DNA of 24,569 bases from Arcobacter sp. (GTDB lineage Bacteria > Campylobacterota > Campylobacteria > Campylobacterales > Arcobacteraceae). The position numbers and the translations under genes are program-made. The notes below the pieces were generated by a model. It did not search any database. It was not told where the DNA came from and was given only the letters and a program-made list of their open reading frames with translations. Shown here in pieces: positions 5,837 to 23,542 of the stretch (positions are counted from its first letter, which is position 1; each line of letters begins with the position of its first letter). The DNA lies in NCBI GenBank assembly GCA_965662175.1, contig CBFIGT010000009.1, forward strand, positions 1 to 24,569, read 5' to 3'.

Positions 5837-7123
5837 TTATTTTACTATAAAATTATCTAAAATAAATAATGATATTACAGAAAAAATATAGATTTTAATA
5901 ACATATGGTAAATTAAGCAATAAAATCTCTTTTGCACTTATCTTATACCTTGATTGCATAGTAAGACTTAAGCCACTAAATGGCGAAGTTGCAACTGTTG
6001 TTGACCATGCAAGTAAAAAAGTTATAGCCAATAAGGTATGATTAAATTGACTCATTATATCACCAATAATTGCAATTGCAATAATTGGATGTATTCCAAT
6101 AAAAGATAATAGTATAAATATAAATAATGTAATTGAAGCCTCTTGCCAACCATAGTTTTCAAAAGGTACCTCAATATTAAATCCTGATAATAAACTACTA
6201 ACTGAAACTCCAAACATACCAGCAACTATAAATAAAGAGAGTTCCATTTTCATTTTTGGAAGTTCATTAAAATGATAATCTTTGAAAATATTTACTGTAT
6301 TTTTTATACCATTTTTAAATATTACTACAAATAGTGTTATTAAAAAAGAGTATAAAGCTACTATAATTATAACTTTTAGATTTTCGTTAATATAGTGGGT
6401 AAGAAGTGTTAAAACAGCTAAAAGAAAAGGTAAATATAGTGTTTGAAAACTAATTGGATATCCAACAAAACTATCTATGTCAAATTTTGTTTTAGCATCA
6501 TAAAAGGTGATTAAAAAAGCTAAAAATGCAAAAAACAAGCCATTTATTAAAATAGTAGATTTATCAAAATTTGGAACATATGTCAAAGCTGCTGCAAATG
6601 CTACAAAAAATGGTGACCAAAAGGCATCTGAAGCAAAAGCTCTTGATAAAACAATAATTTGAAGAGCTTTTAACTCCCCTTTTTTATACATTTTATCAGC
6701 AACTAAAACCAAGGAAAGTAAATTTAATACAGAACCAAATAGATGTATTCCTAAATATGTTTTAAAAAATGAGTTCCAAGATGAACTATTTTTATCAACA
6801 CTCTCTATTTTAGGAGTTGCTATGATTTTTAAATATCCAACACCTATTAATAGACTAAAAAGAAATTGATTTATAGTAAATACTTTTATGAAATTTATTT
6901 CAAAACCATAATAAATAGCTATTAAAAAATTTATAGCACTTAAAACTAATAGTATTACAATAAGACCCCGTCTAACTAGAGTTTTAAATAAAAGAATAAA
7001 AGTTAACCAAGCAAAAATTCCTGCAAAAATAAAAATATCATTATTAAAAAAGTATGCAATATTTGTAAAAACAAATGATAAAAATATTAAAACTCCTGAA
7101 ACTTTTTCTAAACTATTTTTCAC
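5837..7123 (-). CDS. Uncharacterised multi-pass membrane transporter (ion-transporter-superfamily-like)
   Basis: 428 aa with >=12 hydrophobic segments and RAF...WSPFF and GIHPII motifs. GTG start overlaps the upstream DMT gene. Confidence 0.6.
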   Translation of the reverse strand: MKNSLEKVSGVLIFLSFVFTNIAYFFNNDIFIFAGIFAWLTFILLFKTLVRRGLIVILLVLSAINFLIAIYYGFEINFIKVFTINQFLFSLLIGVGYLKIIATPKIESVDKNSSSWNSFFKTYLGIHLFGSVLNLLSLVLVADKMYKKGELKALQIIVLSRAFASDAFWSPFFVAFAAALTYVPNFDKSTILINGLFFAFLAFLITFYDAKTKFDIDSFVGYPISFQTLYLPFLLAVLTLLTHYINENLKVIIIVALYSFLITLFVVIFKNGIKNTVNIFKDYHFNELPKMKMELSLFIVAGMFGVSVSSLLSGFNIEVPFENYGWQEASITLFIFILLSFIGIHPIIAIAIIGDIMSQFNHTLLAITFLLAWSTTVATSPFSGLSLTMQSRYKISAKEILLLNLPYVIKIYIFSVISLFILDNFIVK

Positions 7124-8122: not shown

Positions 8123-8668
8123 GTGATAAGACTTGGTTCAAATTCAGAAACTAGAGCAAAAATATTGAAAGAGCATAATATAGAGTTTATACAAAATGGT
8201 GGAGAGTTTGATGAGGACTCAATAAAAACAACAAATCCAAAGAGTTTTGTATATGAAGCAACTTTAGGAAAGTTTAATGAATTATATAAAAAATATGGTA
8301 TTGGTGATTATCCTCTTTTAGTTGCTGATTCAGTAGTTACAGCTAATGGAGAGCTTTTAAGAAAAGCAAAAGATTATAATGATGCAAAAAGAATGTTAAA
8401 TCTTCAAAGTCAAAATCAAACATCTGTAATTACATGTATGAAATATAAAAGTAAAGATATTGAGTTAATTGATATCTCAATTACTACATATATCTTTGAT
8501 AAATTTGATGAAAATGAATTAAAAAAATATTTAGATTCAAATGAGTGGAAAGGTAAGGCAGGGGCTATTATGGTTGAGGGTTTTTGCAAACCTTATATAA
8601 AAAATGTAATTGGCTATGAATCAACAGCAATGGGACTTTGTGTTGAAAAACTAATAACTTTTAAATAG
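8123..8668 (+). CDS. maf: Maf family nucleoside-triphosphate pyrophosphatase
   Basis: LGSNSETR (LAS.S.RR-like), FDE, VADSVV, WKGKAGA and VIG...MGL motifs. GTG start with AAGGA SD. Confidence 0.9.
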   Translation: MIRLGSNSETRAKILKEHNIEFIQNGGEFDEDSIKTTNPKSFVYEATLGKFNELYKKYGIGDYPLLVADSVVTANGELLRKAKDYNDAKRMLNLQSQNQTSVITCMKYKSKDIELIDISITTYIFDKFDENELKKYLDSNEWKGKAGAIMVEGFCKPYIKNVIGYESTAMGLCVEKLITFK

Positions 8669-8815: not shown

Positions 8816-8824
8816 TGTCATAAT
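8816..8824 (+). promoter_or_regulatory. Putative extended -10 promoter (TGtCATAAT) of the tad operon
   Basis: TGn plus a near-consensus -10 hexamer. The predicted TSS (~8831) falls just before the riboswitch. Confidence 0.5.
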
Positions 8825-8832
8825 TTCAATAT

Positions 8833-8915
8833 ATAAAATGTTAAGCCAAACTTATCGTGAGGTAAGGACGGAAAGCCACGGGTCTTTGTTTGTAAGATAG
8901 CCGGGTTACAAAATC
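8833..8915 (+). ncRNA. c-di-GMP-I (GEMM) riboswitch aptamer
   Basis: G-CC-AAA-[cttatc-GTGA-ggtaag]-GAC-GG-AAAGCC...GGGTCT...AGATAGCCGGGTTAC fits the GEMM consensus. It has a GNRA-capped P2 and a CC/GG covariation at the base of P2. Ligand-contact equivalents are G20 (8845), A47 (8872) and C92 (8909). Confidence 0.93.
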
Positions 8916-8993
8916 TACTAAAATTCTTTTTGTACCCTATGCAATTTTCCCAACATTTAAATTTATTTTATCTATAACTTTAAGGAGTATAAG

Positions 8994-9179
8994 ATGTTTG
9001 ATTTTATTAAAAGAAGATTACAAAGTGATAGAGGTGCTATGGACAAAATTTTAGTAACTCTGCTTTTAGTTGTTGTTGGAATTGGTGCTGTTGTTGGATT
9101 AAGTACATGGATGAGCGGACAATCTGATGAAATTAAAACTGATGCTGAAACTACAGTTGATGCATTAAAAAATAACTAA
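8994..9179 (+). CDS. flp: Flp-type major pilin (atypical; no E+5/Y+6)
   Basis: 61 aa with a basic leader ending SDRG, then a hydrophobic helix. Strong AAGGAG SD. First gene of a tad cluster, next to a prepilin peptidase. Confidence 0.85.
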   Translation: MFDFIKRRLQSDRGAMDKILVTLLLVVVGIGAVVGLSTWMSGQSDEIKTDAETTVDALKNN

Positions 9180-9187
9180 CAAGAGAG

Positions 9188-9207
9188 TGTGAGCTTTTAA
9201 GCTCACA
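9188..9207 (+). promoter_or_regulatory. Intergenic stem-loop after flp
   Basis: tgtgagct / agctcaca 8-bp stem with a 4-nt loop and no U tract. It ends 6 nt before the tadV ATG. Confidence 0.65.
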
Positions 9208-9213
9208 ATCCTT

Positions 9214-9648
9214 ATGTTTAGTATAAGTTTCTATATTTTTTCACTGTTTTTGTCATATATTGATTACAAGAGTTTTAGAATACCAAATATAATTATTGCC
9301 ACAATGGCATTTTTCCTAATTGTATTTGGTATTTTTGAAGAGAAGATAGAGCTATTTTCATTTGTAATGCCTATTTTGGTTTTGCTATTTTTTATAGCTT
9401 TATTACTTTTAAATAAAAATGCTTCAGTTGGTGGTGGGGATATAAAGTACTATATGGTTATAGCACTTTATTTAAACCCTTTTTTGTTTGCAATTTTTTT
9501 GATTGTAACAGGATTGATGCAAACACTTGCATTGATTTTTAGACAATTTTTCCAAAAAAGAAGAGTTGTGGCTATGGGACCTGTAATTTTTGCTTCTGTA
9601 ATTATTACTGAGTTTTTAAACTATTTAGGAGTTATACCTAAGTTTTAA
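9214..9648 (+). CDS. tadV: Prepilin peptidase A24 (TadV/CpaA)
   Basis: Both catalytic Asp motifs are present (IDYKSFRIPN and GGGDIK). Short (144 aa), with no N-terminal Zn/methyltransferase domain, as in TadV. Confidence 0.9.
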   Translation: MFSISFYIFSLFLSYIDYKSFRIPNIIIATMAFFLIVFGIFEEKIELFSFVMPILVLLFFIALLLLNKNASVGGGDIKYYMVIALYLNPFLFAIFLIVTGLMQTLALIFRQFFQKRRVVAMGPVIFASVIITEFLNYLGVIPKF

Positions 9649-9665
9649 GTTATAAAGGTTGTATC

Positions 9666-10673
9666 ATGAAAAAAGCATTTATTGACCAAATTCTTCTTGG
9701 CTTTGTACTTTTTTCAGGAATATTTATCCTAATTGCTACTGTAAGTGATGATACAACTGTTAGAAACAAATACTATAACTTAAAAAAACTAAGTGACAAT
9801 GCAGCTTTATTTGCAGCAAATCATTATAATAAAAATGAAAATACCCAAGATGCCCAAGAGCTTGCAAAAGATATGTTAAGGGAAACTGCTCTTGGTTTAG
9901 AAGTTGTTGATAAAATTGATTTTATTTGGGATTTTGATAATTTACCAAATAGTGTGATTGCGAGAATTACAAATTATGAAGAAAATCTATTTTGGTATAG
10001 ACTTTTATCTCTAAATAGTTTTAATTTTGAAAATATTGAATCAAAAGCAAATATAACAAAAAGAGTATTAACAACTACTAGCAACTTTGCACCACTTGCA
10101 ATAAATAAATGTAATAGAGATGATTTAGTTGATCAAGCTGAACTTAGTTTTGAGTTTCATAGTTATAGTGAATTTTCAAACTATGATTTAAAAGCTTTTT
10201 ATGGGGTAACTAGTGAATGTACAAATCCAAGTGGTAACTCATTTTTTGCACACTATAAAAATATTTTTAATAATCCTACATTTGATGAGAATAATAACTT
10301 TTTTTCTGATTATAGTTTGGATGTTGAAGAGAGTGCTTTATGTTTGCCTGAAACAGATTTTGAAAATCCAAATACTGTTGACCCAAAACAACTTTATGAC
10401 AAACTAAAAAGATTTCCTATTGGCTCAAAAATGCAAATTGCCCTACTTGATTGTGATTCACTTGCAAGTAATATTAATGTAAATGAACTAATAACTGTTG
10501 AACTTTTAAGTGAGGCTTCTTGTACACAAGGATATTGGTCAAATAGTGAAAACTGGTTAAATAGAGTTTGGAATGAACAAAGTAATAGCTGCAATGGTGG
10601 AAACTATGATTATAAGTTATTAAAATTGGATTTAAAAATAGTTGATGAAAAGAAAATTATATTGGAATATTAG
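9666..10673 (+). CDS. TadG-like minor pilin / candidate adhesin
   Basis: Pilin-like N-terminus MKKA|FIDQILL, then a TM and LKKLSDNAALFAA (resembles the Tad-domain LQxAADxAALAAA). C-terminal domain has 6 Cys. Confidence 0.7.
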   Translation: MKKAFIDQILLGFVLFSGIFILIATVSDDTTVRNKYYNLKKLSDNAALFAANHYNKNENTQDAQELAKDMLRETALGLEVVDKIDFIWDFDNLPNSVIARITNYEENLFWYRLLSLNSFNFENIESKANITKRVLTTTSNFAPLAINKCNRDDLVDQAELSFEFHSYSEFSNYDLKAFYGVTSECTNPSGNSFFAHYKNIFNNPTFDENNNFFSDYSLDVEESALCLPETDFENPNTVDPKQLYDKLKRFPIGSKMQIALLDCDSLASNINVNELITVELLSEASCTQGYWSNSENWLNRVWNEQSNSCNGGNYDYKLLKLDLKIVDEKKIILEY

Positions 10674-10681
10674 GAAATATT

Positions 10682-12268
10682 ATGGAACTAAATGATTATA
10701 AATATATTTCAGATGTAAAAAAAGAGCTTCATTGCCAAGATGAGAGTATTCTTGAAATATTAAAACTTTTTGTATTGGTATCAAAACTACCTAAAATTGC
10801 CTTTTTAAAATATGATTCAAAATATAAATCTTTTAATTATAAATATAGTTTAGACTCAAATAAGATTTTAGAAGAGGATATATCATTAATAAATGCAAAA
10901 TATTCAAAAACACTCCAAATCGATGATATTATTTATGGAAAAATCGTATTTAATGAAGAGTTAGAAGAGACAATACTTATTAGCCAATTTTTAGAAAAAA
11001 TTACAAATGCTTTAAAAAAAGGTTTTGATATTGAAAATAGAATTTTATCAGAGGATGTTCCCCTTGATATTTTTATAGTTTCAGATAAACAGACAAAAGA
11101 TTTTTCAAAAAAACTAAAAGATAATTTACAATTAATTTTAAATGCTGAGATAAAAATAATATCTTCAATAGATGATATAAAAGAAAAGCTAAAAGTAAAA
11201 AATAGCAAAAGTCATATTATATATTGTGTAAAAAATGATGAACTTATAAAAGAGGACGAAATATATTTAAACTATTTAAATGAGTTTGTTATGGTAATAG
11301 GTCCAAATAATCATGCAATTTCACTAATTTGTGGGAAACTAAATATTCAAAAATATCTATCAATTGATGAGTTTTCTCCTCAAAAAGTAAAAGATATATT
11401 AATAGAGTATAAAAATACTATTTTAAATAAAGATAAACAAAAACATAAAATCATCTCTATAAATGGAATTTCAGGAGGAGTTGGAACTACAACAATAGCC
11501 ATGAATGTTTCTGATATGATTGCAAGTAATAATCCACAAAATAATGTGCTTTTTATTGATTTATCAACAACAAAAGCTGTGAGTAATATTTTTCTAACAC
11601 AAAATCCTTTACCTGATAAAACCATAATTGATTTAGTAAATATTGAAGAGTTTTCTATTCCTAAATATTTGGATAATGGATTAATGAAAATCAGTGAAAA
11701 CTTTTATAGTATAAATGGAATTCAAAAACATATTGATAGGGATTTAATGGAACAAGAGGTTTTTATAGAAAAACTTCTAAACTTTTTACTAAAATCAACT
11801 GAGTTTTTTAACTATATTATAATTGATACAGGTGAGGCTGATGCCTCAGCACTTAAAAGTACAGTTTATGATGTAGTTGATGATATTTGGGTTACTTTTC
11901 AAATGAATCTTCCACATATTTCAAAACTTAAAACATTTTATTCCCTTATAAAAAGAGCTGGACTTAAAGATAAACTGCTTTTTATGGTTAATAGATTTGA
12001 TTCTCAAAATGCCCTTTCAGTCACTGATGTTCAATCTATTTTAAATACCTCAAAAGATGATGATTTAAATTTTGAATTAAAAATACCAAATGATTATGAA
12101 AACTTAGGAAAATGTTGGAACTACTGTGAATTAGCAACAAAAAGTGCAAAAGACTCTATTTTTGTAAAAAAATTAGAGGAGATACTAGTTAAAAGAAATT
12201 TAATTATCAAAAATGAAAATGAGAAAAAAGAGAGATCAATATTTTCATTTTTTAAAAAGGATAAGTAG
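10682..12268 (+). CDS. tadZ: TadZ/CpaE-like pilus localisation ATPase with N-terminal extension
   Basis: ParA/MinD-like domain with degenerate Walker A GISGGVGTTT, VLFIDL, YIIIDTG and MVNRFD. Directly upstream of tadA. Confidence 0.8.
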   Translation: MELNDYKYISDVKKELHCQDESILEILKLFVLVSKLPKIAFLKYDSKYKSFNYKYSLDSNKILEEDISLINAKYSKTLQIDDIIYGKIVFNEELEETILISQFLEKITNALKKGFDIENRILSEDVPLDIFIVSDKQTKDFSKKLKDNLQLILNAEIKIISSIDDIKEKLKVKNSKSHIIYCVKNDELIKEDEIYLNYLNEFVMVIGPNNHAISLICGKLNIQKYLSIDEFSPQKVKDILIEYKNTILNKDKQKHKIISINGISGGVGTTTIAMNVSDMIASNNPQNNVLFIDLSTTKAVSNIFLTQNPLPDKTIIDLVNIEEFSIPKYLDNGLMKISENFYSINGIQKHIDRDLMEQEVFIEKLLNFLLKSTEFFNYIIIDTGEADASALKSTVYDVVDDIWVTFQMNLPHISKLKTFYSLIKRAGLKDKLLFMVNRFDSQNALSVTDVQSILNTSKDDDLNFELKIPNDYENLGKCWNYCELATKSAKDSIFVKKLEEILVKRNLIIKNENEKKERSIFSFFKKDK

Positions 12269-13854
12269 TGAGAAGTTTAAGAAAACTAATAGAGGAAGAA
12301 GAAGATAAAATCATTATAAATGAAGATGAGAATTTAGAAAACTCTATAAATAAAACAGAAGAGAAAATAAATAAAATCAAACAAAAAAGTTTTAGATTTG
12401 AGCTAAATTTTCCAGAGCTTTATCTTGATGAAAAACTATTAAATATTGCATATGTTATAAATGATAGTTTTATGCTAAACCTAAAATCTGATAAAAAAAT
12501 CACTAAAGAGAGTTTAGAAGAGGTTCTACCAGAATTTATTCTAACTTTTCCTGAAACAAAAAAACTCTCTAAAAATATATTAGAAGAGATTAAAAATTTT
12601 ATCATGAATAATCTAATTGGATATGGTCCTATTAGCACTATTTTTGATATTGCAAAAAATGGTTTAAATGATGTTATTGTAAATACAAAAGATTATATTG
12701 ATATTATTTATAATGGTAAAACAATACAAACACCATTTACTTTTAGAAGTGAAGAGGAGCTTAGAAAAGTTATTGATAAAATGCTTTCAGAAAATAATAG
12801 AAAAATAGATGAGGCTCATCCAATAATCTCTAGTAAATTAAATGATGGTTCTAGGGTTGAAGTTCAAATTCCACCAATTGCTGCAAATGATGGTTCATGT
12901 GTGACTATTAGAAAATTTAATGACCTTCCACTACTTTTAGAGTTTTTAATAGAGTCTGGTCAATTAGATTATAAAATGGCCTATTTTTTACTAAAAGTTG
13001 CCAAAGGAAAATGTAATATCATCGTCTCAGGTGGAACATCAAGTGGTAAAACAACATTTTTAAATGCAATAAGTAGATTTATTGATGACAATGAACAACT
13101 TATGGTAATTGAAGATACAAGAGAGATGCAACCTCAAATGCCCTGCCATAGTATTAGACAATATGAGTCTAGAATGGCAAATGAAGAGGGGAAAGGTGCA
13201 ATTACTCTTGATTTTTTACTCCGTTCTGCACTTCGGTCAAGTCCAAGAAGAATTATAGTTGGAGAGTGTAGAGGTCCTGAGATTGTCGTTATGTTAAATG
13301 CAATGAATACAGGACATCCAGGTTCTATGACTACAATCCATGCTGATAATACAAAAGAGGCAATAGTTAGGGTTGAAAATATGTATTTAGAAGCCAGACC
13401 TAGCTCAAACATAGGATTTATTAGAGCTCAAATAGCCTCAGCTATTGATTTAATAATTCAGCTTGTTCGTTTTCCTGATGGTAGTAGAAAAGTTATAAAA
13501 ATCTCTGAAGTTGAAAAAAGAATAGAAGATAATGGAGTTATGTCTTTAAATAATATCTTTGAATTCAAAAGAGATACAAGTGATATGAAAAAAACAAAAG
13601 GAACTTTTGAAATAGTTTCAACTCCAACTAGAACTATTGAGCAAATGAATATGTTTGGTGTAGATATTGATACAAGAGTATTTGACCCAAAATTTGAGAT
13701 GACAAAAGCTATGTTAATTGAGGAGTTAGAAAAAGATTTACCTGATAAGATGTGTGGATGGAGAGATGAGTTTTTAAATATATTTTTAGAAAAAGATCCA
13801 TCACTTCTACATAAATGGCCACATTTCCAAAATATGAAATTTTCAAGGGCGTAA
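12268..13854 (+). CDS. tadA: TadA/CpaF pilus assembly ATPase
   Basis: GYGPI, Walker A GGTSSGKTT, IEDTRE, Walker B RIIVGECRG and AMNTGHPGSMTTIHA. GTG start overlaps the tadZ stop. Confidence 0.95.
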   Translation: MRSLRKLIEEEEDKIIINEDENLENSINKTEEKINKIKQKSFRFELNFPELYLDEKLLNIAYVINDSFMLNLKSDKKITKESLEEVLPEFILTFPETKKLSKNILEEIKNFIMNNLIGYGPISTIFDIAKNGLNDVIVNTKDYIDIIYNGKTIQTPFTFRSEEELRKVIDKMLSENNRKIDEAHPIISSKLNDGSRVEVQIPPIAANDGSCVTIRKFNDLPLLLEFLIESGQLDYKMAYFLLKVAKGKCNIIVSGGTSSGKTTFLNAISRFIDDNEQLMVIEDTREMQPQMPCHSIRQYESRMANEEGKGAITLDFLLRSALRSSPRRIIVGECRGPEIVVMLNAMNTGHPGSMTTIHADNTKEAIVRVENMYLEARPSSNIGFIRAQIASAIDLIIQLVRFPDGSRKVIKISEVEKRIEDNGVMSLNNIFEFKRDTSDMKKTKGTFEIVSTPTRTIEQMNMFGVDIDTRVFDPKFEMTKAMLIEELEKDLPDKMCGWRDEFLNIFLEKDPSLLHKWPHFQNMKFSRA

Positions 13855-13856
13855 AA

Positions 13857-14789
13857 ATGTTTGATAATACTATTCTAGCTTTAATATTTATTATTCCAAT
13901 ACTATTTATAGTAACAGCATTTTTCATATATCAATATTATGACAAAATGAATAAACAAAAAACAATAATAAATATTTTATCTGAAAATAGTAATGAAATA
14001 ATTGATAAGAAAAAAAATAGAAAAATAGAGAGTAATATAGAGTTAAGTTGGCTCTCTAAAAAACTTCTTTCAGCAGGTTTTACCTCTTCATATGCTCAAA
14101 ATATCTTTATATTTATCTCTATAAGCTTTGGTTTATTAAGTGGAGTATTTGCCTTATATATTATAAAATCTCCCATTGCTTTTATTTTAATATTTATAAT
14201 ATTTTCATTTTTTCCTCTTTTACTTATAAAAAAACTTATTGCTTCAAGGGAAGAGGAGTTTAATTTTGGATTAAAAGCAATCATAGATAAAGTTACAAGT
14301 ATGATGAAAAGTGGAGTTGGATTTGAACAGGCTTTAAAAAAATCTGTTTTAACATCACGTTCAAAACTAACTAAAGATATTTTCAATATTTATTTAAATG
14401 AAAAAGATGTAATAGGTGAACAAAAAGCATTTGAAAAAATGTTTAAATTAATCCAATCAAAAGAGTTGAAAATATTTTATCTAACTATCTCAATAGGAAG
14501 ACAATCAGGTGGTAAATTTTCTAATACCTTAGAAAAACTAAGAAAAACACTTAGAGACCAAGGTGAAATAAAACAAGAGATTACCTCATCAACAAAAGAG
14601 ATAAAAATAGGAAGTTATATGATTATTGCTCTACTTATTTTTATTTATATTATGATGAATAATGCACTTGATGGAGCAATTCATCATCACTTTTTTACTA
14701 CAGCAAGTGGAAAACTTCAAATGTTATTTATAGTTTTATGGGTTAGTTTAGGTCTTTTTGTTAACTCATTAATGACAAAGGTTAAATGA
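13857..14789 (+). CDS. tadB: TadB (T2SSF-domain) inner-membrane platform protein
   Basis: Motifs MKSGVGFEQAL and GRQSGGKFSNTLEKL. Start placed at ATG 13857 just after the tadA stop; the ORF-track start 13815 overlaps tadA. Confidence 0.88.
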   Translation: MFDNTILALIFIIPILFIVTAFFIYQYYDKMNKQKTIINILSENSNEIIDKKKNRKIESNIELSWLSKKLLSAGFTSSYAQNIFIFISISFGLLSGVFALYIIKSPIAFILIFIIFSFFPLLLIKKLIASREEEFNFGLKAIIDKVTSMMKSGVGFEQALKKSVLTSRSKLTKDIFNIYLNEKDVIGEQKAFEKMFKLIQSKELKIFYLTISIGRQSGGKFSNTLEKLRKTLRDQGEIKQEITSSTKEIKIGSYMIIALLIFIYIMMNNALDGAIHHHFFTTASGKLQMLFIVLWVSLGLFVNSLMTKVK

Positions 14790-15622
14790 TGAATATATTT
14801 ATAATATTATTACCAGTTATTTTGGTTATTTTTTCACTTCTTGTTTGGTTTATCTATGATAGACAACAAAAACAAAAAAATATAATCTTACTATCAAAAC
14901 TAGATAATTTAACAATTATTGATAAACAAAATGAAGAAAAAAAAGAGAATAATGTTAATTTTAACCTAAAACTAATACAAGCTGGAATCACTTATAAAGA
15001 GTATAACGAGGGCAGATTAGCATTTTTAGTTTTGGGTTTAGTTTTGATTTTTGCTCTTCCAATATTTTTTAGTTTTACTATTGGTTTATTTGGAATTTTT
15101 ATTGGACTAATCTCTATTTTTTTTGGCGGAAAAATATATCTTATGATTTCAAAAGCAGAAAGAGTTGAAAAAATCAATAAAGACCTAGGTGTATTCTTGG
15201 ATTTAATCAATGTAATTTTAGAAGCAGGTGGTAGTTTAAAAAATGCATTTTTCCAAGTTTCAAGACGAGCCCATGGAATTATTGATGAAGAGTTATTAAA
15301 AGAGATAGCTATTTTAGAGTATGAAATGACAAACTACTCTACAAAAAAAGCTTATGAAAATCTCAAAAAAAGAGTTGACTCTGAGGATATGGACAAAATA
15401 GTTGACTTTTTGATTTTAAGTGAAGAGACGGGGATTGGTGTAAAAAATATTTTTTCAACTCAAAGTGAAGAGATGAGACAAGAAAAATTTTACCAAATAA
15501 AAGGAAAAGTAAATACATTAAATATGTATCTTATGGTTATTATTTTTGTATTTGTACTTCCAGCTTTAGGAGCATTTATAGTGTTTCCTATGATGGCTGG
15601 TAATTTAAAACTTGGAATTTAA
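14786..15622 (+). CDS. tadC: TadC (T2SSF-domain) inner-membrane platform protein
   Basis: Motifs LIQAG, FLDLINVILEAGGSLKNA, SEETGIGV and FVLPA. ATGA overlap with tadB. Confidence 0.88.
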   Translation: MMNIFIILLPVILVIFSLLVWFIYDRQQKQKNIILLSKLDNLTIIDKQNEEKKENNVNFNLKLIQAGITYKEYNEGRLAFLVLGLVLIFALPIFFSFTIGLFGIFIGLISIFFGGKIYLMISKAERVEKINKDLGVFLDLINVILEAGGSLKNAFFQVSRRAHGIIDEELLKEIAILEYEMTNYSTKKAYENLKKRVDSEDMDKIVDFLILSEETGIGVKNIFSTQSEEMRQEKFYQIKGKVNTLNMYLMVIIFVFVLPALGAFIVFPMMAGNLKLGI

Positions 15623-15632
15623 AGGATTTAAA

Positions 15633-16793
15633 ATGAGATTTAATAAAAACTTAGCAATTATTATGGTTTTAGTTTCACTACTACTATCAGCACTTATGCT
15701 CTCTTTTTATTTATATAACTTAAATAAAAAAACTGCTCAAAAAAACAATCAATTAGTTAGTGTTTATATTGCAAAAACTGATATTGAGAAAGACTCTATT
15801 ATAAAAGAGGAAAATCTCTCACAAACACAAATCGCAAAACAGTTCTTGTTAAATAAACCTCTTACAAAAAATGAGATTTTGGCAAAATATACAAAAGAGA
15901 AAATCTATAAAAATGAGATTTTTATAAAAGAGAAATTATCAACAAAAATAGAGCATGAAAAATCATATTTATTGGATTATAAATATAGCTCTTATAATAT
16001 GCCTTTTACTCTTTTTCAAAATCCAAACTATACTTTAAATCCAAATGATAAAATCAATATCGTTTCTGTTTATGTAAAAGAGAATACTCAAATAAAAAAA
16101 GATGAAACAAATCAATATAGTGTTCAATATATAGCTTCAAATATAAATGTCTTAGGTTTTATTAGAGAGGGGAAAGCTAGTGATAAAACAATTGAGAGAC
16201 GGCTTATTAAAAAAGTTGTTAAGAAAAAAGTTATAGAAGAAGAGATAGAGATAAAAGCTGAAGAGCTTGTATTAGACCTGCCTAAAAAAGTTTTATTAAA
16301 TATTTTAAATGATTATAATAAAGGGAAACAACTTTGGATGAGTATTGCAAAAGATGGTACTCCTAACACTAATATTGAAAATAAAAAAACTGAAGAAACT
16401 CCAAAAAAAGAGATAGTTGTTAAAAAAAGTTCAAAACCAAAAAACTATCCAATAATTTGGTATAAACCTCAAAATAACTATATAACTAAAACAGCCACAA
16501 TAGAGTATGCAAATGACCCAAAACTTAAAAAATCAAAAACAACTACAATAAAAAATAGTTTAGAAAATAGTTGTTCTCAAAAAGAAAAACTACTGCTTGT
16601 AAAATCATTTAGAGCAAATATAAGAAATGGTGCTTCTTTAGAGAGTGAGATTTACAAAACCGTATCAAAAAACTATGTTTTACCATATATTTATAAAATA
16701 GGTTCTTGGTATAAATTGTGTGATAATAGATATATTCATAAAAATATTGTTAATGAAATATCTTTAATGGACTTAAATAAAAAAGAGAAATAA
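15633..16793 (+). CDS. rcpC: RcpC/CpaB alignment protein (SAF + RcpC) with C-terminal SH3b-like domain
   Basis: N-terminal TM, SAF-like VYIAKTDIEKDSIIKEENL, RcpC-like LNPNDKINIV...NINVLG, and tail ANIRNGAS...GSWYKL...YIH. ATG 15633 follows an AAAGGA SD. Confidence 0.75.
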   Translation: MRFNKNLAIIMVLVSLLLSALMLSFYLYNLNKKTAQKNNQLVSVYIAKTDIEKDSIIKEENLSQTQIAKQFLLNKPLTKNEILAKYTKEKIYKNEIFIKEKLSTKIEHEKSYLLDYKYSSYNMPFTLFQNPNYTLNPNDKINIVSVYVKENTQIKKDETNQYSVQYIASNINVLGFIREGKASDKTIERRLIKKVVKKKVIEEEIEIKAEELVLDLPKKVLLNILNDYNKGKQLWMSIAKDGTPNTNIENKKTEETPKKEIVVKKSSKPKNYPIIWYKPQNNYITKTATIEYANDPKLKKSKTTTIKNSLENSCSQKEKLLLVKSFRANIRNGASLESEIYKTVSKNYVLPYIYKIGSWYKLCDNRYIHKNIVNEISLMDLNKKEK

Positions 16794-17230
16794 TGAAAAC
16801 AGAAAAAAATAGTACAAAAGCTGCTTATGTAGAAAATATCATTTTATGGATTGTTCTATTTGTAGGATTTGTAACACTATTCTTTTTTATTGTTGAGTAT
16901 TCTGTTACAGTTAAAGTAATAGATAAAACTGATTCATTAAGTGATTATGGAGCTAGAGCTATATCTTTAGGAAATAGTGAAAGTGATGTAGTAAATGGTT
17001 TAAATCAAATAAAAGGTGATAGTTTTAACACTATTACTATTGATAATTTAACATGTAGTGAAAATGTAGGAGTTGAAAACTATCAAGTTATTTTTAATAC
17101 TTATACAACGTATGCAAACAATTTTTTAGTTGGTCAAGGGGAAAATAACATTCATGCAAAAAGTGTTGTTTTTAATGAAACAAGCAGTACTGAAAAAGTC
17201 TGTAATTTATATATTACTATTGGAAATTAG
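16793..17230 (+). CDS. TadE/TadF-like minor pilin
   Basis: KAA|YVENIIL plus TM, then SDYGARAISL (TadE GAR motif). Two Cys. TAATG overlap with rcpC. Confidence 0.72.
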   Translation: MKTEKNSTKAAYVENIILWIVLFVGFVTLFFFIVEYSVTVKVIDKTDSLSDYGARAISLGNSESDVVNGLNQIKGDSFNTITIDNLTCSENVGVENYQVIFNTYTTYANNFLVGQGENNIHAKSVVFNETSSTEKVCNLYITIGN

Positions 17231-17239
17231 GAGTTTATC

Positions 17240-18511
17240 ATGAAAAATTTATTTAAAATACTATTTGGTCTTTTTATACTTAATATTTTTATTTTTGCAA
17301 ATACAAATATTATAGAACAAAAAGATTTTGAAAATAGTACCATCTCAATATCTTCAAATTCTTATAAAATATTGGAGTTTAAAAAAGAGATAAAAAATAT
17401 CAAACTTACTGATAGTAATAAAATATTGGTAGAGTTTATAGAAAAAACAGCTAAACCTTTTAGCCTTTTAAAAGTATTAGGAAAATTAAGTGGAAATGCC
17501 AATGCATTTATAACTTTTCAAGATAATTCAACTATGCAAATAGATTTTAATGTAGTTCCAAATCTAAAAAGCCTTATTAATTTAACACAAAAAGAGTATC
17601 CAAATATTAAAATTTCTCAAATTGATGACTCTATTATATTAAAAGGAAGTGTTGAAAATGAAAAAGAGAAAGAGAGTATATTTGATATTTTTAGAAAAGC
17701 AAATATAGATTCAGATAAAAAAATCATAAATTTATTAGATATAAATAATCCAACAAAAATGGTAAAAGTAAAACTTTATGTTGTTGAAATCAACAATAAA
17801 AAAGGTAAAACTATCAAAAACAACTGGTCTTTAACAGGAAGTAATAGTTCTATCTCCACATCTATAAGCTCAACTATGCTAAGTGCTGTAACCTTAAGTG
17901 GAGGAATAACAGCCGTTGCAAATAGTTTAGGTGGTGATTTTAATGTAGGACTTACATTAAAATATCTAGAAAATAATAATGTAGCAAAAATTCTTGATGA
18001 AACCACATTAATTACCTTAGAGAAAAACAAATCTCAATTCCACTCAGGTGGAATTTTAAATGTAAAAGTTTCATCAACTGATATTACAAGTTTAGAAAGA
18101 ATAGAGTATGGTTTAAAAATGGATATAAATGTACAAGAGATTTTAAATAATAGATATATAAAACTTCTTGTTCGTACTGAATCATCAGTTTTAGATACAT
18201 TAAATGTAGTTGATGGAATCCCCTCAATAAAAAATAAAACAGTGGATACAAATGTTATAGTTGGAGATAAATCAACTGTTGTATTAGGTGGTTTAGTGAA
18301 TATTGAAGATACAAAAATAGAAGAAAAAGTTCCTTTATTAGGTGATATTCCTGTGATTGGAAATATATTTAGAAGTACAGATAAACACTCAGATGATGTG
18401 GAGTTAGTCTTTTTTATAACACCTGAAATAATAGACCCAGCTAACAATAATCAAAAAAATATTTTAGATGAAAAAAGTGAATTTAGAAAAAAAAGAGTTT
18501 TAGAAAAGTAG
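17240..18511 (+). CDS. rcpA: RcpA/CpaC outer-membrane secretin
   Basis: Sec signal peptide, N-domain, BON-like IILKGSV...IINLL, and secretin C-terminal VLGGLV...KVPLLGDIPVIGNIFRS...ELVFFITPEII. Confidence 0.93.
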   Translation: MKNLFKILFGLFILNIFIFANTNIIEQKDFENSTISISSNSYKILEFKKEIKNIKLTDSNKILVEFIEKTAKPFSLLKVLGKLSGNANAFITFQDNSTMQIDFNVVPNLKSLINLTQKEYPNIKISQIDDSIILKGSVENEKEKESIFDIFRKANIDSDKKIINLLDINNPTKMVKVKLYVVEINNKKGKTIKNNWSLTGSNSSISTSISSTMLSAVTLSGGITAVANSLGGDFNVGLTLKYLENNNVAKILDETTLITLEKNKSQFHSGGILNVKVSSTDITSLERIEYGLKMDINVQEILNNRYIKLLVRTESSVLDTLNVVDGIPSIKNKTVDTNVIVGDKSTVVLGGLVNIEDTKIEEKVPLLGDIPVIGNIFRSTDKHSDDVELVFFITPEIIDPANNNQKNILDEKSEFRKKRVLEK

Positions 18512-21452: not shown

Positions 21453-22568
21453 TTATAATTCAAAGTCATTAATAAACTTTTCAAAACTACCTTTTTTTGC
21501 AAAATTTATTTCATATATATTTTCATCAATTTTATCAATTCTAACAGAATCAATCCCATATAAATCTAAAAGTTCATTTGTAACTAAAGTACCCTCTTTC
21601 AATTTAAACACATCCCTTAAAAGCCATTTCCCTAAATCTTTATTTGGATTTGACATTAATGCTTTTTTATTTTCTTGACATATTTTAGCTTCAATCTTTC
21701 TCTTATTTGGTAATTTTAAAGTGAAAATTATATCTTTATTTGGGAAAAAGTTAGGTTTATATTTATAAAATTTACTTGGTATAGGAATATAAACTTCATC
21801 AGCATTTCTAGCTCTTCCTTTTGCATTCCATTGATTTAAAGCACTATTTGTATATACCTTACCTTTCAATCCATATAAAGGTAAATATACTGTTTCAATT
21901 TTTCTTTTCTCTGTTGCTTTATTTGAGTTAATTAAAGAATATAATTCTTCTAAAGGATCTGCTAAAACTTTTATTTCAAATTCATCTAAAAAGCTATCAG
22001 TTAAAAACCTTTTCATTAATGTACTTTTTGACAAAGAAAATGAATACTCATAATTACCATCTTCAAATAATATTGAAGAACTATTTTTTTTAATAATCTT
22101 AATACTATTAATATCAATTGCTTTTATATTTTCTTCAAAAATCAAAAATTTATTTTCATCTCTTACAACACAATGATATAAAAAATCATTCAAACCATAT
22201 AAATTATTTGTAAACTCTAATCTTTTATTTCTTAATTCCGATATTTTTATAATTTTTTCTTTATCTTTTAAATCTTTATATGATAATAAGTCTTTATTAA
22301 ACTCTGCAATTTTTTGAATAGATTTATTATTACCTCTTAAAAAAGTTTTTAAACCTATTCCCAAAGTATCCTTATAAGCGTCATATGAAACATCACTTCT
22401 TGATAAGTCATCAGCTAAAAATGCTTTACAAAACATTTTTTCAGCTATTCTATAATATAAATAAGGTGTTGTAGAATCTGAAAATAAATTAGATAAACTT
22501 CCAACTATTTGTAAATATTCTTTATACTTTAAAATATGATTATTATCTTGTGATTTATAAAATGACAT
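21453..22568 (-). CDS. Type II restriction endonuclease (PD-(D/E)xK-like N-domain plus NgoFVII/B3-like C-domain)
   Basis: Coupled to the m5C MTase by a TAATG overlap. SD..YDA...GLKTF...KIAEF nuclease-like motif and C-terminal LNQWNAKGRARNADEVYIPIP...KALMSNPNKDLGKW. Confidence 0.75.
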   Translation of the reverse strand: MSFYKSQDNNHILKYKEYLQIVGSLSNLFSDSTTPYLYYRIAEKMFCKAFLADDLSRSDVSYDAYKDTLGIGLKTFLRGNNKSIQKIAEFNKDLLSYKDLKDKEKIIKISELRNKRLEFTNNLYGLNDFLYHCVVRDENKFLIFEENIKAIDINSIKIIKKNSSSILFEDGNYEYSFSLSKSTLMKRFLTDSFLDEFEIKVLADPLEELYSLINSNKATEKRKIETVYLPLYGLKGKVYTNSALNQWNAKGRARNADEVYIPIPSKFYKYKPNFFPNKDIIFTLKLPNKRKIEAKICQENKKALMSNPNKDLGKWLLRDVFKLKEGTLVTNELLDLYGIDSVRIDKIDENIYEINFAKKGSFEKFINDFEL

Positions 22569-23542
22569 TATAATATAGCCTTTTTAATATTTATTGCAAT
22601 TGCTTCAATAACACTTACAGTAACAGAATTACCAATTTGCTTATACAAATGAGAATTGGCTATATTTGGTAATACAAAATTTTCATCATAACCCTGAAAT
22701 CTTGCACATTCACGTGGAGTTAATTTTCTAATATCCTTATTATCAATTATTAAAGGTACATTGTGTCCACCCGTTCCCATATTTGCTGTTAAAGTCGGAC
22801 ATAAATTACTTTTATTTTCTCTTACATAAACTCTTCGCCATTGATAAATAGTTTTTTTATTTTGCATTTCTTCTTTTAATTGATTATAATATTTACTGCT
22901 TGTATAGTAAAACTTTTCTTCTACTTCATCATCTATAAAATCTTGTATCTTTTTTGACAAAATGATAGGTTTGGGAAACTGAAACTTATCATACTGCTGT
23001 TTATTTAAAAAGCCTACAATATATATTCTTTCTCTATTTTGAGGAATATTACCATATTCTGAAGTATTTAAAACTTTGTATTTTAAAAAGTACCCTCTAG
23101 ATTTTAATTCATTTTTAATAACTTTAAAAGTATTTCCAATATCATGATTTTGTAAATTTTTTACATTTTCAAGAAATATAATTTTAGGTTTTAAATCATC
23201 AATAAATCTTAATATCTCAAAAAAAACGTTTCCTCTCTCATCATTAAATCCTTTTCTATGTCCTGCAATTGAAAAAGCTTGACAAGGAAATCCTCCTGTT
23301 AATATATCAATTTTCTCAACTTCACTAGTACATAAATCTTTTAAGTCTTTCTCAAAAAGTTTATGTTTATGATTTGCACGATAAGTTATTGCAGCATTCT
23401 TATCAATTTCATTAGCCCAAAGAGTATCAAACCCAGCTTTTTTAAAACCTAATTCAATTCCTCCTATTCCTCCAAAAAGTGCACCAATAGTATAATTTAC
23501 TTTTTTATCATATAGATTGTTAATTGGTTGATTAATACTCAT
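22568..23542 (-). CDS. DNA (cytosine-5) methyltransferase, Bsp6I-like target recognition domain
   Basis: Motifs I (FGGIGG), IV (GFPCQ), VI (ENV), VIII (PQNRER), IX (RKLTPRE) and X (YKQIGNSV). TRD YQWRR..VRENK..CPTLTANMGTGGHNVP. Confidence 0.96.
   Translation of the reverse strand: MSINQPINNLYDKKVNYTIGALFGGIGGIELGFKKAGFDTLWANEIDKNAAITYRANHKHKLFEKDLKDLCTSEVEKIDILTGGFPCQAFSIAGHRKGFNDERGNVFFEILRFIDDLKPKIIFLENVKNLQNHDIGNTFKVIKNELKSRGYFLKYKVLNTSEYGNIPQNRERIYIVGFLNKQQYDKFQFPKPIILSKKIQDFIDDEVEEKFYYTSSKYYNQLKEEMQNKKTIYQWRRVYVRENKSNLCPTLTANMGTGGHNVPLIIDNKDIRKLTPRECARFQGYDENFVLPNIANSHLYKQIGNSVTVSVIEAIAINIKKAIL

Follow-up and report, generated by a model that had tools for sequence, protein, structure and literature searches.

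A probable Tad/Flp-type pilus operon led by a canonical c-di-GMP-I riboswitch in Arcobacter sp.

The window considered here, that is the whole 24,569-nt stretch of Arcobacter sp. contig CBFIGT010000009.1 (assembly GCA_965662175.1), likely carries one Tad/Flp-type (type IVc) pilus operon led by a canonical class I riboswitch for cyclic diguanosine monophosphate (c-di-GMP), with the assembly and control routes proposed below. Ten co-oriented open reading frames (ORFs) occupy positions 8994-18511 of the plus strand; neighbours overlap slightly or are separated by no more than 34 bases, and the genes run in the order flp-tadV-tadG-tadZ-tadA-tadB-tadC-rcpC-tadE-rcpA, with the aptamer ahead of flp. 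These ten names and their order had been given in the original prediction and all of them are upheld here, several only via profile, structure or language-model evidence, and three of the ten are weakly supported. Pfam assigned six of the ten ORFs directly (an A24 peptidase, a MinD/ParA-type protein, T2SSE, two T2SSF proteins and a secretin). The arrangement is also a stable one. Among 53 related loci fetched with their flanks, 17 are cut by contig ends and 36 span tadZ to rcpA, and the gene order of the window is kept in 36 of these 36.

Components of the probable pilus machine

Comparison of the ATPase with solved structures gave 232.9 bits for CpaF, while archaeal GspE (116.5 bits), FlaI (110) and VirB11 (95) followed at a distance. 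The original prediction had named a grouping of TadA with the conjugative VirB11/TrbB ATPases as an outcome that would speak against its reading, and this concern is removed because the protein is far nearer to CpaF than to VirB11; a VirB11/TrbB affiliation was thus rejected. The best NCBIfam match was the TadA-family model TIGR03819 with 223 bits, which is below its equivalog cut-off of 373, and public records name orthologous ATPases of cultured Halarcobacter, Poseidonibacter and Arcobacter strains as 'CpaF family protein' or 'Flp pilus assembly complex ATPase'. Directly after the ATPase gene come two separate T2SSF proteins, TadB and TadC, as is expected of a Tad locus; a PDB profile search with TadB returned nothing. 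The longest ORF of tadB starts at 13815 and the alignments of its orthologues start at about residue 15. Because orthologue alignments begin there, the true starts of tadB and rcpC are likely to be those listed in Table 1, slightly downstream of the longest-ORF starts.

RcpC and the secretin were assigned with the help of solved Tad structures. A structural model of RcpC, built from 31 orthologues (predicted local distance difference test, pLDDT, of 85.6), had the solved RcpC 9gzr as its best PDB match (Foldseek E 1.5e-6, probability 1.00), and its C-terminal 60-70 residues matched bacterial SH3 domains in a search with the model. SAF was found in 29 of the 31 orthologues and SH3_3 in 13, while the NCBIfam model TIGR03177 matched at 6.8e-6, under its cut-off. 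For the secretin, the best solved match was RcpA 8odn at 71.2 bits, with PilQ close behind at 66.8.

The protein encoded ahead of the ATPase gene, in the position that TadZ has in Tad systems, matched CbiA and BcsQ in 30 of 30 orthologues. Its N-terminal half (about 250 amino acids) matched no family in any of these 30, and no TadZ-specific model matched; its Walker A motif reads SGGVGTTT, with both usual lysines replaced, and the PDB profile search gave only a P-loop match to Wzc. The prepilin peptidase is a short A24 enzyme without a methyltransferase domain, as in TadV, and the two aspartate motifs are present in its translation (D17 and GGGD76IK).

Two further ORFs are read as pseudopilins. 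Although no Pfam family matched the 335-residue TadG-like ORF, its first 30 residues share homology with the N-terminus of the TadE-like ORF (hhalign 94.8%, E 4.9e-8), its nearest ESM-Atlas clusters are PF13400 TadG-like (0.94), and its model (pLDDT 80.7) shows an N-terminal helix of 56 residues leading into an alpha/beta head. Foldseek with this model found nothing at E<=0.001, and VIA-align placed inositol monophosphatase N-domains at the top (Z 7-8.3) and type IV pilins at Z 5.2-5.6, under the noise guide of 8; the tool rates all these values as typical of common arrangements. In homologues the N-terminal 120-185 residues are conserved and the remainder is not, and some relatives have homologues of 784-846 amino acids with Big_9, He_PIG and cadherin-like domains. 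The gene is the most variable part of the locus: 2 of the 36 loci lack it, and in a further 2 it lies beyond the secretin gene on the opposite strand. As for the TadE-like ORF, 11 of 30 orthologues matched PF13400 weakly (best 2.4e-4, all below threshold), and a PDB profile search from its alignment returned nothing.

The identity of the major pilin deserves closer consideration. Among its homologues G14, A15 and D17 are invariant (20 of 20), and a basic leader and a hydrophobic core are present; cleavage is predicted after G14 and would leave a mature form of 47 amino acids. Several observations argue against a Tad/Flp pilus at this point. No Flp-family profile of Pfam or NCBIfam matched the window pilin, and PF04964 matched 0 of the 20 homologues at E<=1. 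The Flp processing motif is G/XXXXEY, and the mature N-terminus here reads G/AMD, with D at +3 and without the E-Y pair. In addition, neither TadD nor RcpB was found among the ten ORFs with Pfam and NCBIfam, the rest of the genome not having been searched; these outer-membrane lipoproteins are accessory in TXSScan-type definitions. Given its size, its position, the basic leader and the hydrophobic core, the pilin probably works like Flp.

Taking the parts together, the TadV-type peptidase would cut the small prepilin after G14, and the CpaF-type ATPase with the TadB/TadC platform would polymerise the pilin at the inner membrane, aided by the TadZ-like protein, with the RcpC-type alignment protein passing the filament through the RcpA-type secretin. 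Priming or capping of the filament is probably the task of the two pseudopilins, which share an N-terminal motif, and the larger, TadG-like one would bear a variable head, in the place of which relatives have Ig/cadherin adhesin modules. Type IV filament machines are also reused for secretion and DNA uptake, which raises the possibility that the product is not mainly an adhesive pilus, but rather a short pseudopilus exporting or displaying the TadG-like protein, or a DNA-uptake pilus. An atypical pilin would be compatible with such a function, as would a TadG-like gene that varies more than any other and has adhesin domains in relatives. However, every part best matches the Tad set (CpaF, RcpC, RcpA, PF13400), and neither a competence-type DNA receptor nor a GspC/L/M-type gene of a type II secretion system (T2SS) was found in the locus with Pfam and NCBIfam, so that we regard this alternative as improbable and retain the adhesive Tad pilus as the likely product.

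Three side observations concern the same components. Two flp-like genes are present in many related loci (eleven were recorded), mostly adjacent at the operon head, with the pair flanking tadV in one locus and the second copy lying past the secretin in another; the window has one. The stem-loop between the pilin and peptidase genes (Table 1) may be a partial terminator, an attenuator or a processing site that keeps pilin mRNA above machine mRNA. Finally, a second, unrelated T2SSE-family ATPase is encoded in the same genome (contig C10:11768-12823, minus strand, 407 bits to PF00437), and the Tad operon is therefore not its sole type IV filament or T2SS-like machine.

Table 1. Features of the operon, its leader and its neighbours (positions in the window)
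Feature	Position	Strand	Evidence or remark
maf	8123-8668	+	upstream neighbour of the operon
Candidate extended -10 promoter element TGT-CATAAT	8816..8824	+	by eye; about 11 bases before the aptamer
c-di-GMP-I (GEMM-I) riboswitch aptamer	8835..8914	+	RF01051, 64.4 bits
Alternative hairpin, candidate expression platform	8900..8943	+	aptamer 3' strand 8903-8913 pairs with 8927-8937; excludes the folded aptamer
Flp-like major pilin, 61 aa (amino acids)	8994..9179	+	first gene, directly before the prepilin peptidase gene; size
Stem-loop with a perfect 8-bp palindromic stem, in the gap separating flp from tadV	9188..9207		self-complementary stem, listed on the minus strand by the terminator scan
TadV/CpaA-type prepilin peptidase, 144 aa	9214..9648	+	PF01478, 1.8e-9
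TadG-like minor pilin or adhesin carrier, 335 aa	9666..10673	+	shared N-terminus, model, ESM-Atlas neighbours
TadZ/CpaE-like MinD/ParA-family protein, 528 aa	10682..12268	+	AAA_31, 2.1e-7, residues 256-384
TadA/CpaF ATPase, 528 aa	12268..13854	+	T2SSE, 2.3e-45
TadB, T2SSF platform protein	13857..14789	+	PF00482, 2.6e-9
TadC, T2SSF platform protein	14786..15622	+	PF00482, 1.5e-8
RcpC/CpaB homologue with C-terminal SH3-like domain	15633..16793	+	structural model; SAF/SH3_3 in orthologues
TadE/TadF-like pseudopilin, 145 aa	16793..17230	+	weak PF13400 matches in orthologues
RcpA/CpaC-type secretin, 423 aa	17240..18511	+	PF00263, 3.4e-34
dxs		opposite strand	downstream neighbour; stop 6 bases past the last operon gene

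The c-di-GMP-I aptamer and the proposed control of the operon

The aptamer matched RF01051 over model positions 1-87 with a score well above the cut-off of 35 bits and is the sole match of this family in the genome. Over 16 homologues, compensatory changes were seen in 5 of 20 pairs and only 1 of 320 cells was broken, and the c-di-GMP-I aptamer that the original prediction had placed at the head of the operon is confirmed by the score and the compensatory pairs together. The window aptamer has G at model position 10, A at position 37 and C in the 3' junction, which we take to be the equivalents of G20, A47 and C92 of Vc2. Among the 16 homologous aptamers G11 and A38 are invariant, and the C is kept in 15.

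By contrast, cmscan labelled positions 8836-8914 as RF03167 (c-di-GMP-I-GGC). Weinberg and colleagues (PNAS, 2017) reportedly stated that such variants may recognise other signalling molecules, and if the label were right the RNA would be a variant for another ligand. The score of 63.6 bits does lie 4.6 bits above the gathering cut-off of 59; however, RF01051 scores as high or higher (64.4 bits), and the G that the variant consensus has at model position 37 in the RF03167 alignment is A in the window and A in all 16 homologues, with the other contacts being G and C. The variant label was therefore rejected as a near-tie artefact of Rfam clan competition, and a different ligand is very improbable. 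Because A stands at the variant-diagnostic position and the A, G and C contacts are kept in homologues, the RNA is a canonical class I aptamer, which would bind c-di-GMP. Automatic annotation of such Arcobacteraceae aptamers as 'GGC variant' would mislead. The ligand is plausibly made in this organism given the 34 GGDEF-domain matches in the genome. At the presumed C92 contact, one homologue (G089; L110:145-226) has T and the other 15 have C (GGGTTGT versus GGGTTGC), and an altered ligand preference is possible for the former.

The transcript probably begins just before the aptamer, with a predicted start near 8831. A candidate extended -10 element was recognised there by eye (Table 1), and a similar TGTG..A(C/T)AAT motif lies 20-30 bases ahead of most homologous aptamers; a consensus promoter scan did not list the 8816-8824 element and returned 4 promoter-like sites against 4.2 expected. 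On the other side, the 3' strand of the aptamer can pair with a downstream partner strand to form the alternative hairpin of Table 1. The duplex has a predicted stability of -11.7 kcal/mol, equalled by 0 of 300 shuffles, and is present in the minimum free energy fold. Of the other 15 leaders, 8 have a comparable alternative partner at p<=0.07, while in 7 it is absent or weak, and base changes in the aptamer strand of the window and of G089 are mirrored, as judged by eye, by changes in the partner strand. Ligand binding would lock the aptamer, blocking the alternative hairpin built on its 3' strand.

How such a hairpin would be read out is less clear, and two results are unfavourable to it as a conventional platform. 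It would make a poor intrinsic terminator because of its 14-base loop and because no U tract adjoins it. Likewise, forcing the aptamer to form in the window hardly alters the predicted accessibility of the Shine-Dalgarno sequence (0.63 to 0.58), and the 16 leaders do not shift in a common direction. A platform sequestering the Shine-Dalgarno sequence was rejected for this reason, and no intrinsic terminator was detected after the aptamer by the terminator scan of the plus strand between 8600 and 9300. In four leaders belonging to one genus (L108, L118, L121 and L122) the distance from aptamer to pilin gene is 185-237 bases versus about 50-110, and in three of them (L108, L118 and L122) a hairpin with a U run was seen by eye straight after the aptamer. 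Given these distinct leader hairpins, the expression platform differs between lineages. The 16 homologous leaders without an obvious terminator could help explain how c-di-GMP-I platforms of this kind act.

As to the direction of control, high c-di-GMP usually favours attachment structures, and a switch by which c-di-GMP turns the operon on would suit surface attachment when the messenger is abundant. On these biological grounds only, we lean somewhat toward an ON switch. The reverse is possible with a clearly smaller probability: at high c-di-GMP the folded aptamer could free the spacer 8915-8985 or permit a downstream element, and so lower transcription or translation of the operon. The competing hairpin is unconvincing as a terminator, which weakens the usual ON logic, and the spacer as read from the sequence is C-rich and G-poor, like Rho-binding sites; the separate hairpin and U run right after the aptamer in L108, L118 and L122 would also agree with an OFF switch. 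By contrast, no anti-terminator/terminator pair can be defined in the window, the Shine-Dalgarno sequence is predicted to be equally accessible in both states, and the general association of high c-di-GMP with attachment points to the ON switch, which we prefer.

Distribution and history in Arcobacteraceae

Of 184 species genomes of Arcobacteraceae, 60 encode an orthologue of the ATPase; these come from 13 of 22 genera and show 67-83% identity where the orthologues are full length. This breadth, together with the gene order shared by all 36 loci described above, means that the architecture is widespread within the family, and the novelty claimed for it in the original prediction does not stand. 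Within the genus of the window itself, by contrast, one of 8 genomes has an orthologue and the 7 others have none. The surroundings of the operon are conserved, with dxs after it in 15 loci and maf before it in 7. Complete genomes of congeners (5 of 5) have an empty site, in which only 450-970 bp separate maf from dxs and the outer neighbours are unchanged, and RF01051 has no match in any of these five genomes. A mobile island had been suggested by the first three relatives, which are without maf/dxs flanks, and was dropped given the flanks of the wider set and the clean empty site in congeners.

In the ATPase tree the window ATPase stands alone on a long branch (0.46), without supported nesting in another genus and with a best identity to any row of 79%. 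The simpler reading is therefore that the operon has long occupied the maf-dxs site in Arcobacteraceae and was lost repeatedly, including in the sampled congeners. A recent recombination of operon and riboswitch into this genome from another Arcobacteraceae genus would account for the single carrier among the eight genomes of the genus and for the joint presence or absence of riboswitch and operon there, and the conserved flanks would permit homologous replacement. However, we consider it rather unlikely in view of the lone long branch with its best identity of 79%, an insertion site that is common to several genera, and borders at which no integrase or repeat was noticed, no repeat search having been run. 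Long residence with repeated loss thus remains our preferred history.

The aptamer is distributed more narrowly than the operon. Of the 59 other genomes with an ATPase orthologue, 15 have an RF01051 match 2.3-4.3 kb upstream of the ATPase gene and on its strand, and a pattern search of the flanked loci found the aptamer in 12 of 39 testable ones, with the window included and with two loci counted by hand in which the match adjoins a contig end; the two counts share most genomes and are not independent. In two genomes (G008 and G010) no aptamer was found upstream of flp, even at E<=1. That 27 of the 39 testable loci are without an aptamer tells against c-di-GMP control as a constant part of the system, and it indicates that the pilus does not need the aptamer. 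The original prediction had described the pilus as directly wired to c-di-GMP. An aptamer does head the operon in the window, but such wiring would be optional, the aptamer being present in about 12 of 39 testable loci. When the aptamer was placed on the ATPase tree, 6 state changes were needed, at least 4 of which are forced by well-supported branches. The homologous aptamers closely resemble one another and keep a constant position, which would fit an ancestral element lost several times.

Several traits are specific to the family. The pilin is without a Flp motif, RcpC is fused to an SH3-like domain, TadZ is long and the TadG-like protein is modular; in addition, the secretin gene comes last, and the operon is polymorphic for presence or absence at the maf-dxs site. 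Going further, Arcobacteraceae and a sister family may have a Tad subtype of their own, defined by a pilin with an invariant Asp at +3 in place of the E-Y pair, a modular TadG-like tip adhesin with a head that is exchanged between lineages and ranges from a domain of 200 amino acids to Ig/cadherin arrays of 800 amino acids, and an ancestral c-di-GMP-I gating that was often lost or uncoupled; we offer this as a tentative idea. If it is true, presence or absence at maf-dxs and the type of head would decide which surfaces or hosts a strain colonises. Arcobacteraceae include bacteria from the environment and from animals as well as emerging ones spread by food and water, and their attachment factors are poorly defined; the operon is a concrete candidate for such an organelle and is carried by about a third of the species. 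Its simple presence/absence polymorphism and variable adhesin-like component make it easy to test genetically, and we see it as worth the attention of a group working on Arcobacter, though not as an exceptional target.

Two features elsewhere in the window were recorded in passing. A 428-residue ORF at 5837-7123 (minus strand) matches no Pfam family, and its DNA is about 70% conserved in five congeners together with an adjoining EamA gene. At 21453-23542 (minus strand), between aminotransferase and pheA genes, lies a restriction-modification pair, in which the endonuclease is of the NgoFVII type with a B3-like domain at its C-terminus (3.1e-12) and its partner is a C-5 cytosine methyltransferase (8.1e-90).

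Relation to known pilus and riboswitch systems

In a full-text literature search that left most subscription journals outside its coverage, we found no study characterising an Arcobacter Tad/Flp system, consistent with the statement in the original prediction that no characterisation was known to its author. Nor did this search find a paper on a c-di-GMP riboswitch paired with Flp pili in Campylobacterota, or on a GEMM riboswitch paired with tad. One paper notes a TAD pilus cluster in the genome of a Sulfurospirillum epibiont, and Table 2 of Weinberg et al. (2007) has GEMM upstream of the pilus genes cpaA, pulF and hofQ. The system described here is thus not of a new kind, and the pairing of riboswitch and pilus is an established context.

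The part list is the same as that of Aggregatibacter actinomycetemcomitans tad, Caulobacter cpa and Pseudomonas aeruginosa rcp-tad, namely a small pilin, TadV/CpaA, TadZ/CpaE, TadA/CpaF, TadB, TadC, RcpC/CpaB, RcpA/CpaC and TadE/F/G-type proteins, and the solved CpaF, RcpC and RcpA of Tad systems are the best structural or sequence matches of the window proteins. The differences lie in layout and detail. The model systems have the rcpC and secretin genes straight after the pilin and peptidase genes, whereas the window has them last. Its pilin is without a Flp profile match and has D at +3 in place of E-Y, its RcpC has an extra SH3-like domain, its TadG-like head is exchangeable, and the locus has no TadD/RcpB.

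Within Campylobacterales, a sister family (f15, two loci) is the closest counterpart, with an ATPase 56-58% identical and the same core order of tadV, tadZ, tadA, tadB, tadC, rcpC and rcpA. It differs in having the pilin gene after the secretin, no c-di-GMP-I aptamer in the 18 kb examined and a TadZ of 397 amino acids, a form that the window TadZ exceeds by about 130. In two other Campylobacterales families a CpaF-like gene of 39-43% identity was found in 8 of 276 sampled genomes, with the secretin upstream; in two such loci (L127 and L128) the ATPase has 420-440 amino acids and about 41% identity, and the upstream secretin gives a more classical tad layout.

On the RNA side, the aptamer has the same two-hairpin architecture as Vc2 of Vibrio cholerae, the type example of RF01051, with covariation and the canonical contact nucleotides. 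It differs from this type in a platform that is neither a recognisable terminator nor a helix sequestering the Shine-Dalgarno sequence, and in being the only copy in its genome. The nearest regulatory parallel is pilA1 of Clostridioides difficile, for type IVa pili, which is reportedly under a c-di-GMP-II riboswitch acting as an ON switch. There too a c-di-GMP riboswitch stands directly before a type IV pilin gene, although the riboswitch is of class II, the pilus of another subtype and the host Gram-positive. With the riboswitch placed directly before the pilin gene, pilus synthesis would therefore be tied to the messenger without a protein regulator in both systems.

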